A DNA stretch of 40,589 nt. It comes from a virus. Its lineage: Duplodnaviria > Heunggongvirae > Uroviricota > Caudoviricetes. A program made the position numbers and the translations under genes. Under the pieces are notes generated by a model, which worked only from the letters and a program-made list of their open reading frames with translations, was not told the origin of the DNA and ran no database searches. The stretch is taken from IMG/VR virus record IMGVR_UViG_2718217867_000004, positions 1-40,589 of that record; one strand, 5' to 3'. This document shows positions 26,791-32,537 of this stretch, piece after piece (positions within the stretch are counted from its first letter, which is position 1; each line of letters opens with the position of its first letter).

Positions 26791-27063
26791 TTACCTCCAG
26801 ATCCGTTGCTGGAATGTGCGGGACGGACGCGGTGGGCGTTCGGAGTAAGGAAGCCTGACGGAGATTATCCAGTGACGATAATCGAGGCTGAGGGCTTTCT
26901 TAATCTCGTATCCGTGTCTGCGGTAGCACTGAATTAGCCATTCAGCTTGTTCTTCAGTACATGGGGGATGCTGGTACCAATCAGATTTAAATGCGCGAGA
27001 GCGCCGCCCGTGCCTGCTGGCAAGGTCGGTATCAGAATTGTGATGTTTGGTATTGTGCGCCAT
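26791..27063 (-). CDS. Hypothetical nin-region protein
   Basis: Start placed at the first ATG (MAHNTKHH); the track's longer ORF needs a TTG start. Confidence 0.45.
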   Translation of the reverse strand: MAHNTKHHNSDTDLASRHGRRSRAFKSDWYQHPPCTEEQAEWLIQCYRRHGYEIKKALSLDYRHWIISVRLPYSERPPRPSRTFQQRIWR

Positions 27064-27249
27064 CTGTTTTCTCTGCAGGCGCAGCAGGTGCCAGTTGTTC
27101 AGGCTGGCGTGCGGCAATATTGTCTCTGATTTCTGTTGTCGTCAACCGCTTCTGCGCTTACTCACTTGATGAGTGAGGCGATTAACTTTACTATTTACTT
27201 AACAGGTTTTTCCTGTACCACAATTCCCCAATACAGGAGGCCATCATGA

Positions 27250-27582
27250 GTGACGACAAAAAAATTGAGTTCAGCACCAGCTGATGTGTTGAATGCTTTA
27301 CTCCATCGCCATCAGAATATGCAACATCTTGCAACACAGGAAAGCGTTGATAACTTACGTCGCGAGATTGATAGTCGATTTAATGCTTCACAAGAAAACG
27401 TTGATAATCTGCGTCGGGAAGTCGATAGTCGCTTTAACTCTTTGCAAAATCAGTTAATGTCGGTTGATAAGCGTCTGGATAAACTGGAAACCAAGTTTGA
27501 CCGACTCCAGTGGTTTATCGTTGCCGCTGCTCTGGCACTCATCTTTAAAGATTACATCCTCAGGTTTATGGGTGCTTTATAA
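27250..27582 (+). CDS. Coiled-coil protein with C-terminal transmembrane helix (membrane-anchored)
   Basis: 110 aa; internal repeat (SVDNLRREIDSRFNASQ / NVDNLRREVDSRFNSLQ), C-terminal hydrophobic helix; GTG start 10 nt after an AGGAGG SD, with an ATG four bases upstream in another frame; convergent with hok. Confidence 0.55.
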   Translation: MTTKKLSSAPADVLNALLHRHQNMQHLATQESVDNLRREIDSRFNASQENVDNLRREVDSRFNSLQNQLMSVDKRLDKLETKFDRLQWFIVAAALALIFKDYILRFMGAL

Positions 27583-27585
27583 AAC

Positions 27586-27609
27586 CATAAAAAACCCGCC
27601 GAAGCGGGT
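27586..27609. terminator. Bidirectional terminator between the coiled-coil gene and hok
   Basis: Hairpin CCCGCCGAAGCGGG flanked by an A-run upstream and TT downstream on the plus strand; strong T-run on the minus strand. Confidence 0.6.
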
Positions 27610-27678
27610 TAAGTGCGGGTGCGTTGAGGATGCCTGACACATCAGAGGTGGCGAGGGATTTCTCCCCCGCCTGGTCTC

Positions 27679-27834
27679 TTACTCCTCAGGTTCGTAAGCT
27701 GTGAAGACAGCGACCTCCGTCTGGCCGGTTCGGATTCGTACCTCGCAGAGGTCTTTCCTCGTTACCAGTGCCGTCACTATGACGGTTAAACAGATGACGA
27801 TCAGGGCGATTAACATCGCCTTTTGCTGCTTCAT
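27679..27834 (-). CDS. hokD: Hok/Gef family type I toxin (HokD/RelF-like)
   Basis: 51 aa MKQQKAMLIALIVICLTVIVTALVTRKDLCEVRIRTGQTEVAVFTAYEPEE: single TM helix plus the conserved Hok motif; matches the HokD sequence as I recall it. Confidence 0.9.
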   Translation of the reverse strand: MKQQKAMLIALIVICLTVIVTALVTRKDLCEVRIRTGQTEVAVFTAYEPEE

Positions 27835-27892
27835 AGCCTGCTTCTCCTTGCCTTTCGGCACGTAAGAGGCTAATCTTCAGTTGTCGAGACAT
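27686..27892 (-). CDS. mok-like overlapping reading frame (modulator of killing)
   Basis: 68-codon ORF starting upstream of hok and overlapping it in another frame, as in hok/mok/sok loci. Confidence 0.45.
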   Translation of the reverse strand: MSRQLKISLLRAERQGEAGYEAAKGDVNRPDRHLFNRHSDGTGNEERPLRGTNPNRPDGGRCLHSLRT

Positions 27893-28264: not shown

Positions 28265-28348
28265 TTACCCCCAGCGGCAAATCGAATACACCACCAGCGC
28301 CACCGCCATCGCAATTCCTGCCGTTGCAAATGCTTCAGGCCAGCTCAT
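28265..28348 (-). CDS. Small hydrophobic peptide (27 aa), hypothetical
   Basis: ATG overlapping the DUF551 stop (ATGA) with a GGAGGTGA SD; peptide MSWPEAFATAGIAMAVALVVYSICRWG is one TM helix; below the ORF-track cutoff. Confidence 0.35.
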   Translation of the reverse strand: MSWPEAFATAGIAMAVALVVYSICRWG

Positions 28349-28725
28349 TGACTCACCTCCTGCGGCGGTTCCGGTAGCTGCATCCAGTGAGTTGCTTGCT
28401 CAATACCATTACCCGGCTTAATCGTTGCATCTCCGCGCCGAAAGGTGCTTCCGGTATAGCGTGCGGAGCATATTAGCGGTTCAACCAGAGAGCTATCGAA
28501 ATTCACTGAAATAAGCACGTTCTCGCCCTTTTCAGGCATTCGCGCACTACAGCTTATCCAACCATCCGGAGTTACCGGATAGTTGCGCATTGCGATCTTA
28601 AATACCTCATAGAAGCAACCTTTCAGATTATTGAACTGACGCCCGTTCAGAGGGCCATGTTCTGTCAATATGTTGTGTAATTTCCATGCCGCGTCGTTAA
28701 CTTCGTTGGATGACATGGGAGGCAA
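28345..28725 (-). CDS. DUF551-like phage protein
   Basis: 126 aa ORF in the nin region; family assigned from memory of the sequence type. Confidence 0.7.
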   Translation of the reverse strand: MPPMSSNEVNDAAWKLHNILTEHGPLNGRQFNNLKGCFYEVFKIAMRNYPVTPDGWISCSARMPEKGENVLISVNFDSSLVEPLICSARYTGSTFRRGDATIKPGNGIEQATHWMQLPEPPQEVSQ

Positions 28726-28870: not shown

Positions 28871-29470
28871 TCAATCTCCTTTGGTACCAATGTTTACAGC
28901 CTGGCAAGCCTCTTTGAGTACCCAATCAACAGCGTCTTTCCATGCTCCGGTTTCGACTGGCGGATTTTCACGCTTAACCTGTTCATAGAAGCGCACTGCT
29001 TTAACCAGTCCTTTCGGTACTACTGGCGATGGCTGTTTGGCTTCCAAATCAGCAATTCTGTCAACCACGGCATCGACGGCATCTGAAAAGCCGAACCAGT
29101 TACTCCACTCCGGCCTGTTACCGGTTGCTGCAAAGTACATATCATCTAAAGCAGACTCAGCATGGTCACGCTCATTGATGAGTTGTTCTTCGCTTTTCTC
29201 CAGTTCTGCTATGCGCTTGTTTTGGGTTTCCCGTTCATCCAGCAACTCCTGCGCTACTTCTGGGTTGAAAGCTGCGATATAACGAGCGTTGTTCTCTGCG
29301 TTTTTCTGTTCGTCGAATCCAGGCCAGTCGACAATATCTCCGTGATGATTATCTCCTGGTGTGTGCACGGCGTACGTGCCGTGTTTGCCCGGCGAAATAA
29401 ATGCGCCCCATTCGCCCTGTGTTGCCTGTTTTGCTATCTCACGCAGTGCCTGATAGTTAATTTCTCTCAC
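28871..29470 (-). CDS. Ead/Ea22-like protein
   Basis: 199 aa; N-terminus (INYQALREIAKQATQGEWGAF) typical of the Ead/Ea22 family; GTG start overlapping the upstream stop. Confidence 0.75.
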   Translation of the reverse strand: MREINYQALREIAKQATQGEWGAFISPGKHGTYAVHTPGDNHHGDIVDWPGFDEQKNAENNARYIAAFNPEVAQELLDERETQNKRIAELEKSEEQLINERDHAESALDDMYFAATGNRPEWSNWFGFSDAVDAVVDRIADLEAKQPSPVVPKGLVKAVRFYEQVKRENPPVETGAWKDAVDWVLKEACQAVNIGTKGD

Positions 29471-29687
29471 TTCGAACCTCTCTGTTTACTGATAAGCTCC
29501 AGATCCTCCTGGCAACTGGTACAAGTCCGGCCCCCCTTAACGGCCAGTCGCCGCCGTTTATCTATCGGCTCGCCACACTCACAACAATGAGTGGAGGATA
29601 CGGAACGAAAATTTGTCTGGTATTTTGCAGGGCACTATTGCGCTGAAGTTCTTCGATCTCTGATGCCTGATCGGCAATATCAGCCAT
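29467..29687 (-). pseudogene. TraR/DksA-family C4 zinc-finger gene, frameshifted
   Basis: N-terminal frame MADIADQASEIEELQRNSALQNTRQ... stops after 41 codons; the -1 frame encodes the zinc finger ...HCCECGEPIDKRRRLAVKGGRTCTSCQEDLELISKQRGSK up to a stop overlapping the Ea22 start; frames meet near a T4 run at about 29606-29613. Confidence 0.6.
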
Positions 29688-29862
29688 TTTGTTCTTCCTC
29701 TTCGTCTTTTATTTCGTAATATGAGTAATTGCAGTAGTTAAAGAAAATTTCTTTTGCTTCGTCATTTATTTCATCAGGTGTCGCATCATCGTCCACTTCG
29801 AATACATCCTCAAAATTTCCACCAGCTATTCCCGTTTCAATAATTATTTTGAACTTTCGCAT
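29680..29862 (-). CDS. Small acidic hypothetical protein (60 aa)
   Basis: ATG with an AAGGA SD; AT-rich; stop overlaps the start of the TraR-like gene. Confidence 0.4.
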   Translation of the reverse strand: MRKFKIIIETGIAGGNFEDVFEVDDDATPDEINDEAKEIFFNYCNYSYYEIKDEEEEQNG

Positions 29863-29957
29863 ATTGCTACCGTCCTTTCGGGCAGCCTCCTGATGTTCTG
29901 AGGGTGCAGAAATCCCTCCGGTTAAGGATTAAATTAAATTTGCTGTGCTAAATTTAA

Positions 29958-30413
29958 TTATTCAGTTTTTATTCCCGTTCTCAAAACAGCCTCTGCCATT
30001 CTGATATCCGGATTTTCTGAAATCATCTTTTCTGGCGAATCGCAGTCACCACCACATTCAGTTATGCGTTCATGACCCAAACGAATTGTGGTTTTATGCG
30101 CATTAATCATTTGTGTAAGCGCGTCTGTCAATTCTGCAATGCGATTTTTTGCTGCATCCAGCTCGTCCAGCAGTGACAGTACGTCAGGATCGCTAACATC
30201 AACGACGGTTACACGCGATTTCAGGTAATGCTCATCCGCAAAAGTTCGACCAAACTTTAAATATCCATCATCCCCCTCGCCTGTGCAGGCATACACAATA
30301 TGCGTTCCGGAAGATATGCGCTGCATCGACATTTCCTCGCCACAAACAGAGCATTCAGGTACTGGCTTAGGTGAATAACGTTCCCGTAGCGCCTGATAAT
30401 CAGTCTTGCTCAC
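29958..30413 (-). CDS. Zinc-ribbon-containing hypothetical protein
   Basis: GTG start with a perfect AGGAGG SD 6 nt upstream, overlapping the DUF4406 gene end; N-terminal CSVCGEEM...YACTGEG and C-terminal ECGGDC cysteine clusters. Confidence 0.5.
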   Translation of the reverse strand: MSKTDYQALRERYSPKPVPECSVCGEEMSMQRISSGTHIVYACTGEGDDGYLKFGRTFADEHYLKSRVTVVDVSDPDVLSLLDELDAAKNRIAELTDALTQMINAHKTTIRLGHERITECGGDCDSPEKMISENPDIRMAEAVLRTGIKTE

Positions 30414-30705
30414 TGGCTGCCTCCTGAAAAATAACCGCATGTCCCAGTTTCTCCGCCAGCGCCAGTTCTGCCTTAGCGCCTGCCGACCGCTGCCAGCCTT
30501 TCAGCATGTAAATCGCATCCACGCAACGAATCATTGCCATACAGATATCCATGTAATGCGGCTGTGTCAGCCCGTCCGGAAGCACTGCCGGATTCAGGAC
30601 GGTATGCCCTTCCCGTTTCAGTTCCTCTTCCGCCTTGTGAAATGCCTCACGGTTGAAATTTTCATACCCCGTCATTGGACCGGCGATAGAAACCCTCACT
30701 CTCAC
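30400..30705 (-). CDS. DUF4406-like protein (nucleoside 2-deoxyribosyltransferase-like fold)
   Basis: 101 aa starting MRVRVSIAGPMTGYENFNREAF, the signature N-terminus of this family. Confidence 0.75.
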   Translation of the reverse strand: MRVRVSIAGPMTGYENFNREAFHKAEEELKREGHTVLNPAVLPDGLTQPHYMDICMAMIRCVDAIYMLKGWQRSAGAKAELALAEKLGHAVIFQEAASEQD

Positions 30706-31019
30706 TCCTGAACCCTCCTGTCGAAATAAACATAGTTATTCACCGTGCGCAGCGGCATTTCGAATTTTTCCGCTATCTCGCGACGTGAAATGCCCTGCTC
30801 ATGTAGCTGTCGTATCACCTCAACGCTGCTCCGGGGCATTTTTACCGACTGGTGAAAATCACCCCGCAACATCAGACTGATACCCAGTTCCCGCGCTTTT
30901 GTTCTTACTGCCGCCTCCGTACGCCCCGTCAGCTTCCCGATGTCTTTCACCCGCATGGTTCCCGCACACTGCCGGAGTATCAGGGTTTCAGCCCTGCACC
31001 ACGTCTTCCGGTTGCCCAC
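30702..31019 (-). CDS. Putative HTH DNA-binding protein (NinH-like C-terminus)
   Basis: Two HTH-like segments (DIGKLTGRTEAAVRTKARELGI; ISRREIAEKFEMPLRTVNNYV); start uncertain (GTG at 31019, GTG at 31106 or ATG at 30956). Confidence 0.45.
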   Translation of the reverse strand: MGNRKTWCRAETLILRQCAGTMRVKDIGKLTGRTEAAVRTKARELGISLMLRGDFHQSVKMPRSSVEVIRQLHEQGISRREIAEKFEMPLRTVNNYVYFDRRVQE

Positions 31020-31021
31020 TG

Positions 31022-31768
31022 CTATTGTTCTCCGGTAGCTGCAATCTTCCGGAGAATATCCCTGTGTTTGTTCAGCTCCCGCAGCGCAGCACAGACACGC
31101 TCCCACTTCCGGATATCACTTTTCACCCTACGCAGCTCGCGGTTTGCCTGTCGCAGCGATGGCAGAACCAGATTATCCACTCGCTTTTCCGTTACCGATG
31201 ACTGCGACTGTACAATGTCCGCCACAGTTTCTGTTTTAATATCTTCCTGTGCTGCAGCTTCCTGTACTGGTAACGCAACACCTGCTGGCTGAGGAAAGGC
31301 TTTACCATTGGTTTCCGCTACCGATTCAACTTTCGGCTCTACTGGTAAATTATCACCCGGTATGCAGTAACGAAATTTACCGTTCTGATTTACGCGAATC
31401 AGGCGTCCTTTGCTGATTGCCATAGCCAGCGTTGAAGCCACTTTGCGTGATGTGGTACCGAACAACGTAGCCAGTTCATCCGCAGTTAGTGGACCACGTT
31501 GTTCAATCGTCGCGGTTAAATCGCACTCCGGTATTTTCGCGACTGTTGCCGTGGTGGTTTCTTCCGGCGGTTCTGCCTGCTCTGGCTGTTCCTGCTGAGC
31601 GTTGTTATCAGCCACACGCCAGGTGTATACGCTTTTATCAACGAAACCAGCCTTTTTCAGCTCCCACAGCTCGTTCAGCACTTCTTCACGACTGATATCA
31701 AGTCGCGCAGCCAGCTCTACCGACGTGGCTTTGCCCATTGCTTTCAGTGCGTCAAAAACGGTTTCCAT
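31022..31768 (-). CDS. Winged-helix-like protein (DUF1627-like), hypothetical
   Basis: Start placed at [13 protein letters not shown] (GGGAGA SD); central Pro/Glu/Gln-rich linker; sits between the DnaC-like gene and the nin region. A 1-nt mismatch between my stop reading and the track coordinates is unresolved. Confidence 0.55.
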
Positions 31769-31790
31769 AAAATTTTTCTCCCGGTAAAAA

Positions 31791-32537
31791 TTACTTCTCT
31801 GTTCCTGGCTGACCGACATTCGAACGCCAGCTTTCCCAGTTAAAATTCACCCAGCGACCACCGTTCATGGTCATGCGGTCCATCACTCGCTCTCCCAGAA
31901 GGGTGCTCATCGCGGTATGGTTCAGGTTCGTCAGCATCCCGACACTGCGCATCGAAGCCGTTCTGCGGTCGACTATCTGGTTCAGAGTGACCTGTTCATT
32001 GCGTGTATCACGCTGCATGCCAATCTCATCCAGAACCAGCAGGTCAACGTTGCACAATCCCTGCAAAAACTTTTCACCCGAGTTTTTGTTGTCGTAGCTG
32101 CCGTGCAACGCCAGCATCACATCAGCCACAGTGACCACAATCACACTCCGCCCCTTCGCCAGAAGATGGTTGCCGATGGCTGCCGCAAGGTGATTTTTTC
32201 CGGTACCCGGCTTACCGCTGAACACGAAATTTGTGCACCTGGTCATAAGTTCGTCCGCGATGGATTTTGCATGACTCAGCGCGTGGCGTTGCCCGTCGTT
32301 CTGCACCCGGTAATTCGCAAACGAACACTTCTGGTGCAACGGCTGGATACCCGAACGGTTCAGAATTTTTTCCGCATGAATCTTGTTATTCAGGCGATTA
32401 ATCTCCTCACTACGTTTTCGCCCTTCAGCAAGCCACCACTCGTACCACTCTTCCCGTGTCCGGTACGGCGCGGTTACATGCTGTGGGGCCAGTCTGCGGA
32501 TACGTTCAAGAACACCGCTTGCCGCAATATTTTTCAT
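31791..32537 (-). CDS. DnaC-like helicase loader (IstB-type AAA+ ATPase)
   Basis: 248 aa; Walker [18 protein letters not shown] and Walker B LLVLDEIG. Confidence 0.9.

Follow-up and report, generated by a model that had tools for sequence, protein, structure and literature searches.

Human DNPH1 (also Rcl), a 2'-deoxynucleoside 5'-phosphate N-hydrolase alternatively named 5-hydroxymethyl-dUMP N-hydrolase, holds the 5'-phosphate through the backbone amides of Ile29, Arg30, Gly31, and Gly100 together with the hydroxyl of Ser98 (PMC10483697). Its nucleophile, Glu104, is hydrogen-bonded by Tyr24, Asp80 is the proposed general acid, and the partner subunit contributes Ser128 to complete the active site; in the rat enzyme, exchange of the Tyr for Phe lowers kcat/KM 280-fold (PMC10483697). 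Ea22 proteins of lambda and Shiga toxin (Stx) phages consist of an N-terminal domain, a coiled coil, and a variable C-terminal domain, and are tetrameric and pro-lysogenic (PMC10834534, PMC7093339). Here, we scrutinized two overlapping genes, one encoding a DUF4406 protein and the next an Ead/Ea22-like protein, in the virus record IMGVR_UViG_2718217867_000004. The whole 40.6-kb stretch (positions 1 to 40,589) is hereafter called the window. A reading of the window made from its sequence only had proposed a translationally coupled pair, a deoxyribosyltransferase-like gene and a zinc-ribbon gene, possibly serving nucleotide processing or DNA modification. We consider it probable that the locus is best explained overall by a stand-alone DUF4406 gene, a swappable Ead/Ea22 slot gene, and an operon joint between them, all ordinary cargo.

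Two sets of loci were used to compare the gene neighborhoods, namely 80 viral-contig loci with a DUF4406 identity of ≥90% (close loci) and 80 loci each from another species (species loci), in which Ead-like open reading frames (ORFs) were counted within 3 kb. Downstream of a constant junction, the close loci carried at least eight different cassettes, including at least four Ead/Ea22 N-terminal types, DUF4752, small unrelated ORFs, an unrelated NQWRPDICP-type N-terminus fused to Ead-type C-terminal modules, and a 16-codon Ead remnant on a DUF7167 leader. The Cys-type partner present in the window occupied this position in only 10 of the 80. Because the second gene is freely swapped in its slot, the pair is ordinary cargo rather than a dedicated two-gene system. 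Among the species loci, an Ead-like ORF was found within 3 kb in 11 and directly downstream in three, with none within 3 kb in the remaining 69. All 11 were from Enterobacterales except two metagenome bins (Collinsella and Actinomycetes) that carried an Escherichia-like DUF4406. Immediate neighbors in the 79 other-species loci were replication proteins, SNF2 and DnaB helicases, four kinds of DNA methylase, exonucleases, VRR-NUC, Lar, dUTPase, and holins, and no constant DUF4406 partner was found among them. Across 5426 complete Escherichia coli genomes, a DUF4406 gene was present in 848 and the exact Ead allele in 28; the N-terminal Cys module of the latter occurred in 126 genomes, at 129 matching places of which 44 were on plasmids. 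Thus, co-conservation of the two genes, on which the proposed pairing depended, does not extend beyond enterobacterial prophages, given the three directly adjoining species loci and the lack of a constant neighbor. The disparity between 848 and 28 E. coli genomes also speaks against the pairing. Both genes are drawn from one enterobacterial accessory pool, often in the same block, and neither requires the other. In phage D6 and related plasmids, two small genes separate a 203-aa DUF4406 from a Cys-type Ead gene downstream, indicating that the same accessory block is common to lambdoid prophages and P1-like elements. On P1-like phage D6 (NC_050154.1, 76131-80357) and plasmid NZ_CP135715.1, the DUF4406 of about 203 to 207 aa adjoins ref, and the Cys-type Ead/Ea22-like gene lies two genes downstream.

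At the junction itself, the sequence-only reading had the DUF4406 stop overlapping an AGGAGG-GTG start. That overlap is real and its start is conserved in the 80 close loci, although the GTG lies 8 nt ahead of the TGA stop (30402-30400) and not on it. With the GTG at 30413-30411 and DUF4406 ending at 30400, the two ORFs overlap by 14 nt. Such overlaps recur along the operon: the 4 nt GTGA contain both the stop of the DNA-binding gene upstream and the start of DUF4406, and further down a frameshifted TraR/DksA gene and a second Ead/Ea22 gene also overlap their neighbors. Hence, gene overlap is the rule in this operon and no peculiarity of the DUF4406/Ead pair. A CAGGAGG-N6-GTG/ATG arrangement was present at the DUF4406 3' end in all junction variants (80/80 close loci). 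Because the ribosome-binding site and start are embedded in this conserved 3' end, translation of the slot gene is probably coupled to that of DUF4406. The junction reflects how the operon is built and where its cassettes recombine, and is not a sign of a two-protein machine. In some close loci (L012, L014, L025, L033, and L048), the Ead/Ea22 gene is cut to the 16-codon remnant VSEINYQELRQVKEKA directly past the DUF4406 stop, joined to the DUF7167 leader near the position of the window's Ead stop and AT-rich repeat, which represents a deletion or recombination joint.

The DUF4406 protein matched Pfam PF14359 along nearly the whole profile (E 1.1e-35; 122.3 bits versus a cut-off of 22; residues 4-93 over profile positions 2-91 of 91). 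The only other Pfam match was a sub-threshold one to DUF1937 (21.2 bits versus 23), and the Pfam scan gave no match to PF05014, the nucleoside 2-deoxyribosyltransferases, at E ≤0.01. It also matched phrog_355 (E 1e-45), whose PHROG label is nucleoside 2-deoxyribosyltransferase. The family-invariant residues N18, F22, P39, P43, Y51, S74, G76, A77, and E80 are all present in the window protein, which departs from the family at position 6. The predicted model was confident and describes a minimal protein of four strands and three helices that ends after strand 4 (about residue 96). It has the superfamily arrangement of a helix-flanked parallel sheet with the nucleophile opening the helix after strand 3, and its best matches among solved structures were 1t1j, the cytidine monophosphate (CMP) hydrolase MilB, deoxyribosyltransferases, and Rcl/DNPH1. 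The relationship to deoxyribosyltransferases and nucleotide N-hydrolases claimed from the sequence is supported, and DUF4406 very likely adopts a cut-down N-(deoxy)ribosyltransferase/DNPH1-like fold.

DUF4406 is a stand-alone, very widespread accessory protein of temperate phages. The family comprised 10,256 clusters (50% identity) at E ≤0.001, and examples of PF14359 proteins from temperate phages or prophages include WP_049595161.1 and orf89 of phage D6. Some relatives are about 200 aa long with an added C-terminal half; among about 35 longer proteins checked for fusions, no informative partner domain was found, and the only case was a helix-turn-helix. Like many PF14359 relatives, the window gene sits among early or replication-associated phage genes. 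An identical protein is already held in RefSeq/NCBI under the DUF4406 name, and scans against PADLOC and NCBIfam returned no match for either this protein or the Ead/Ea22-like protein.

To relate DUF4406 to DNPH1, the human sequence was confirmed against PDB chains, and residues were mapped by hhalign of a DNPH1 profile versus a 244-sequence DUF4406 profile, with columns counted over the same 244 homologs. A shallow DUF4406 profile against the single DNPH1 sequence gave no alignment by hhalign, and broader profiles were needed on both sides. The resulting alignment spanned the full length of DUF4406 and DNPH1 template positions 1-107 of 144 (E about 1e-3, probability <10%). It placed VYIAGPMTG over LYFCGSIRGG and SAGAKAE over SLGVGYE (DUF4406 over DNPH1), such that the motif S-x-G-x3-E is in register and E80 falls over Glu104. 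Conservation of this motif was nearly absolute, with Ser74 in 244/244, Gly76 in 241/244, and Glu80 in 243/244 homologs. The consensus Tyr6 aligns with DNPH1 Tyr24, and the glycine-rich loop GPMTG is kept and resembles the phosphate loop of DNPH1. Relative to the PF05014 enzymes, the motif Ser suggests a phosphorylated ligand. Taken together, these residues suggest that the ligand is a phosphorylated nucleotide and the chemistry Glu-based, with a noncanonical acid and a truncated site; that this chemistry would act on a 5'-phosphorylated nucleotide is a tentative assignment.

The window copy carries Ser at position 6, where the family has Tyr or Phe. Among the 244 homologs, Tyr was found in 213 and Phe in 22 (235 together), and Ser occurred in the window protein alone; its nearest relatives all read MRVRVYIAGP. 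The exact Ser6 allele was nevertheless recovered on 101 contigs, adjoining the exact Ead allele (90 contigs), and since it recurs in this way, it is a lineage allele and no sequencing error. By analogy with DNPH1, in which this aromatic position tunes the nucleophile, the Tyr6-to-Ser change has probably left the window DUF4406 weakened or inactive.

The downstream protein is a modular Ead/Ea22-like protein in a hypervariable slot. Its 151 aa, as read earlier from the AGGAGG-GTG start, hold up, since the ORF from the GTG has this length and PGAP calls the same start. An alternative start at the ATG at 30440 (ORF 29958-30440, 160 aa) was rejected; family N-termini align from the GTG, which PGAP uses in nearly all records. 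The PF13935 match was strong (E 5.1e-22; 79.4 bits versus a cut-off of 27; residues 2-119), and a homolog search returned >1300 relatives, the best 120 of which were all named ead/Ea22-like or bear PF13935. The AlphaFold2 model (predicted local distance difference test score, 86) comprises a short helix and small beta elements at the N-terminus, a 44-residue helix (76-119), and a C-terminal helical hairpin. In alignments, relatives have the N-terminal module (residues 1-95) in common, while their C-terminal modules are unrelated. The protein therefore resembles lambda Ea22, P22 Ead, and PF13935 in its above-threshold Pfam score, the same three-part layout in the model, and extreme mosaicism. 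It differs at the C-terminus, where a short helical hairpin bears no relation to the solved C-terminal domain of lambda Ea22 (a sequence search of the PDB gave no match), and in its location: lambda ea22 lies in the exo-xis early-left region, whereas the window gene follows the replication genes in the rightward operon, on the strand of the cro-like, YdaU, and DnaC-like genes. The operon also encodes a second Ead/Ea22-like protein, 28% identical to the first, so that the window prophage holds two paralogous Ead/Ea22 cassettes. The N-terminal domain of this second copy lacks the Cys3His residues, a subtype confined in the window to the first.

The Ead/Ea22-like protein has cysteines at C21, C24, and C43, and at C129 and C133. 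Four conserved potential metal ligands, C21, C24, C43, and H62, were invariant in 58 aligned sequences, and the N-terminal Cys module was also found on proteins with other C-termini and in P1-like phage-plasmids. These residues may bind zinc, the alignment being compatible with a plausible Cys3His site. Only one CxxC is present (C21/C24), however, with C43 and H62 as single residues, and not the two knuckles of a zinc ribbon. Fold searches with the protein gave nothing significant; local, nonsignificant matches were to serine-integrase entries and to RNA polymerase II chain I, which we take to be the zinc-ribbon subunit Rpb9. Full-length relatives (P0131, P0144, P0149, and P0153) read ELSGEC or DLGGDC at the second cluster, retaining C133 with Leu in place of C129. 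Of the two cysteine clusters described from the sequence, both exist and the N-terminal set is invariant, but the second is unconserved save for C133. The zinc-ribbon label could not be sustained, as the protein belongs to PF13935, has a single CxxC, and yielded no demonstrable zinc ribbon in fold searches.

In the mechanism that would follow from the favored account, DUF4406 family members would bind a ligand resembling a nucleoside 5'-monophosphate and cleave or exchange its base via a covalent intermediate between Glu80 and the sugar. Both the putative ligand class and the putative chemistry draw on the invariant Ser and Glu and the GPMTG loop, which would stand at the DNPH1 positions for holding the 5'-phosphate and attacking C1'. 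The predicted outcome is a nucleotide pool trimmed or reshaped during phage replication. The downstream slot would house an interchangeable Ead/Ea22-type modular protein (an N-terminal domain, here of the candidate Cys3His type, a coiled coil, and a variable C-terminal module), and the embedded ribosome-binding site and start would serve as an operon joint coupling the translation of whichever cassette occupies it.

Several findings weigh against this account in part. A member of the Ead-related cluster lay downstream of DUF4406 in 60 of the 80 close loci, about three quarters, and P1-like phage D6 has DUF4406 and the Ead gene within about 1 kb, so that a loose functional link is still conceivable. 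Searched by sequence against solved structures, as a single query and as a 54-sequence profile, DUF4406 gave no relevant match, and no pairwise sequence similarity to DNPH1/Rcl or MilB was detected. The low hhalign probability makes residue mapping inside helix 2 uncertain. The position over DNPH1 Asp80 is Cys55 (Cys in 198/244 homologs, Asp in 19/244), with Asp53 two residues upstream (167/244), and the C-terminal third of DNPH1 that carries partner-subunit Ser128 is without a counterpart. Comparison with the DNPH1 active site, as the sequence-only reading had advised, therefore gave a divided result: the nucleophile and the phosphate-binding Ser have invariant counterparts in Glu80 and Ser74, but the window DUF4406 has Cys for Asp80, Ser6 for Tyr24, and no Ser128 segment. 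As regards the Ser6 allele, Phe6 in 22 members implies that the hydroxyl is not needed universally, and persistence of the allele on 101 contigs argues against strong counter-selection. Searches of the literature on DUF4406, PF14359, DUF1937, and phage deoxyribosyltransferases in anti-defense found no experiment on a DUF4406 protein, only incidental annotations and one preprint on PF05014 enzymes of diaminopurine phages.

The 14-nt overlap with its embedded ribosome-binding site, the frequency of Ead/Ea22-related genes next to DUF4406 in the close loci, and the joint operon of DUF4406 and a Cys-type Ead gene in D6 and related plasmids could be taken as marks of a dedicated, co-evolving two-gene system for nucleotide processing or DNA modification. 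We regard this as very improbable, since other cassettes use the same junction and only 10 of the close loci have the Cys-type partner, 69 species loci lack any Ead-like ORF over 3 kb, and elsewhere DUF4406 lies beside genes for replication proteins, methylases, helicases, and nucleases with no constant partner. The window's second Ead/Ea22-like gene has no DUF4406 directly upstream. Lambda ea22 and P22 ead reside in a leftward operon that is not known to include DUF4406. The pair could alternatively be decaying cargo, with this DUF4406 a dead allele in a defective prophage, a possibility compatible with the ordinary-cargo account that we regard as real though doubtful. Ser6 is unique among the 244 homologs, and within a few kb the TraR/DksA gene is frameshifted, DUF551 is present as truncated fragments, and there is an integrase-core insertion sequence (IS) pseudogene; yet neither ORF is disrupted, the two alleles were recovered in identical form on 101 and 90 contigs, respectively, and one substitution is no proof of loss of function.

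Other alternatives concern what DUF4406 does. Rather than cutting its ligand, it could be a small nucleotide binder that sequesters or senses, for example, a host immune signal; or it could act on NAD-derived molecules, as do TIR and SLOG domains, which resemble it in structure, and so provide phage counter-defense. This is unlikely, since neither PADLOC nor NCBIfam matches nor the literature lend it support, the best fold matches were N-glycosidases and transferases and not TIR domains, and an invariant Glu and Ser at enzyme positions are more typical of a catalyst. The PHROG label would make it a true nucleoside 2-deoxyribosyltransferase that swaps bases among free deoxynucleosides for salvage, but that name is annotation only and PF05014 was not reached at E ≤0.01. 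Deoxyribosyltransferases, such as the Lactobacillus enzyme, have Asp at the position of the motif Ser, whereas the DUF4406 residue is as in phosphate-binding DNPH1, and its glycine-rich loop also resembles the DNPH1 phosphate loop. At 101 aa versus about 150 to 165, DUF4406 further lacks the C-terminal part with which transferases complete their active site. We regard this assignment as improbable. A more far-reaching proposal is that DUF4406 is an uncharacterized and very widespread class of phage enzyme, a minimal N-glycosidase of nucleotide 5'-phosphates whose Tyr/Cys/Glu site would let temperate phages destroy a noncanonical or signaling nucleotide early in infection, and whose output would be read or complemented in enterobacterial prophages by the coupled Ead/Ea22 protein, with its zinc N-terminal domain and a C-terminal module swappable for different host factors; we view this as a long shot. 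The features of the locus are collected in Table 1.

Table 1. Coordinates of the DUF4406 and Ead/Ea22-like genes and associated features in the window
Feature	Position	Strand	Basis
DUF4406 gene, 101 aa, GTG start	30400..30705	-	ORF list; Pfam; PGAP
DUF4406 codon 6 (TCT, Ser), aligned with catalytic Tyr24 of human DNPH1	30688..30690	-	Sequence, column counts, hhalign
DUF4406 codons 74-80, motif S-A-G-A-K-A-E, aligned to DNPH1 Ser98/Gly100/Glu104	30466..30486	-	hhalign and column counts
AGGAGG (30425-30420), spacer CAGCCA (30419-30414), and GTG (30413-30411) within the last DUF4406 codons	30411..30425	-	Sequence; PGAP start
Ead/Ea22-like gene, 151 aa, GTG start	29958..30413	-	Pfam PF13935, PGAP WP_073533567.1, AlphaFold2, alignments
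N-terminal module, residues 1-95, candidate zinc site C21/C24/C43/H62	30129..30413	-	58-sequence alignment
Second cysteine cluster, C129-x3-C133	30015..30029	-	Alignment
AT-rich inverted repeat AATTAAATTT-N8-AAATTTAATT	29932-29941 / 29950-29959	.	Repeat scan (I10)
Second Ead/Ea22-like gene, 199 aa	28871-29470	-	PF13935, E 1.4e-23
Helix-turn-helix DNA-binding gene upstream of DUF4406	30702..30956	-	ORF list, Pfam, PGAP (84-aa form)

A Rac/lambda-like E. coli prophage makes up the window. Over 1.6 kb spanning the pair, it shares 99.9% identity with the E. coli PapM-36-2 chromosome, where gene calls match and RefSeq/PGAP annotates both genes with the same boundaries as in the window; the two genes are ordinary prophage cargo already annotated under the same family names. 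RefSeq gene order in PapM-36-2 runs from a Cro/CI-type regulator through YdaT, YdaU, a DnaC-like ATP-binding protein, DUF1627, and a small DNA-binding protein to DUF4406, the ead/Ea22-like protein, DUF7167, the frameshifted TraR/DksA gene, and the second ead/Ea22-like protein, followed by DUF551 fragments and an integrase-core pseudogene, hokD, DUF968, RusA, and antiterminator Q. In this part of the window, every gene in the ORF list is carried on the minus strand. The pair is thus located in the early rightward operon, within the accessory ("nin-like") block between the YdaU/DnaC-like replication genes and RusA/Q, that is, in the accessory stretch from replication to late-gene control. Signs of decay annotated by RefSeq in the identical PapM-36-2 prophage, namely the frameshifted TraR/DksA gene, the incomplete integrase-core (IS-type) pseudogene, and the truncated DUF551 fragments, lie at 29467-29687, 26805-27839, and 28345-28584 of the window. 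Read as its longest ORF (30702-31106, 134 aa, start at 31106), the small DNA-binding gene would overlap the 3' end of the DUF1627 gene (31022-31819, minus strand) by 85 nt; the PGAP form is shorter (84 aa, start at 30956).

The sequence-only reading had also drawn attention to a palindrome with 10-bp arms after the pair, at about 29927-29955. This repeat exists, but its actual position is 29932-29959 and it is not kept in relatives, where the right arm is AAATAAAATT and no compensating change accompanies it. In the window, the right arm overlaps the TAA stop (29958-29960) of the 151-aa gene. The palindrome is among 11 short inverted repeats of the window, four of which have perfect 10-nt arms, compared with about one of this type expected by chance in our own uniform-composition estimate. 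A role as terminator or regulatory site was rejected on account of the weak, AT-only 10-bp stem (region z-score -1.8), the lack of a call at the palindrome in a terminator scan, and its loss as a palindrome in relatives. We treat it as a chance feature inside the conserved DUF7167 leader. Elsewhere in this leader, at 29868-29890 on the minus strand and upstream of the DUF7167 start at 29862, there is a GC-rich 7-bp hairpin with a GAAA or GGCA loop, placed between an AGGAGG (29890-29885) and the DUF7167 ATG. Nine variants of the leader in other prophages retain the hairpin, differing by one compensatory and several G-U changes, and it may bring the distant ribosome-binding site next to the DUF7167 start or regulate translation.

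For the window itself, the significance of the pair is small, as both genes are in RefSeq and are arranged in the manner usual for lambdoid mosaics. Of broader interest is DUF4406, a large family with an enzyme-like signature, for which the residue map yields concrete mutation targets, namely the kept Ser74, Gly76, and Glu80, Cys55 in place of the canonical Asp, and the natural Tyr6-to-Ser allele. A biochemical assignment of DUF4406 would annotate thousands of phage genes together.

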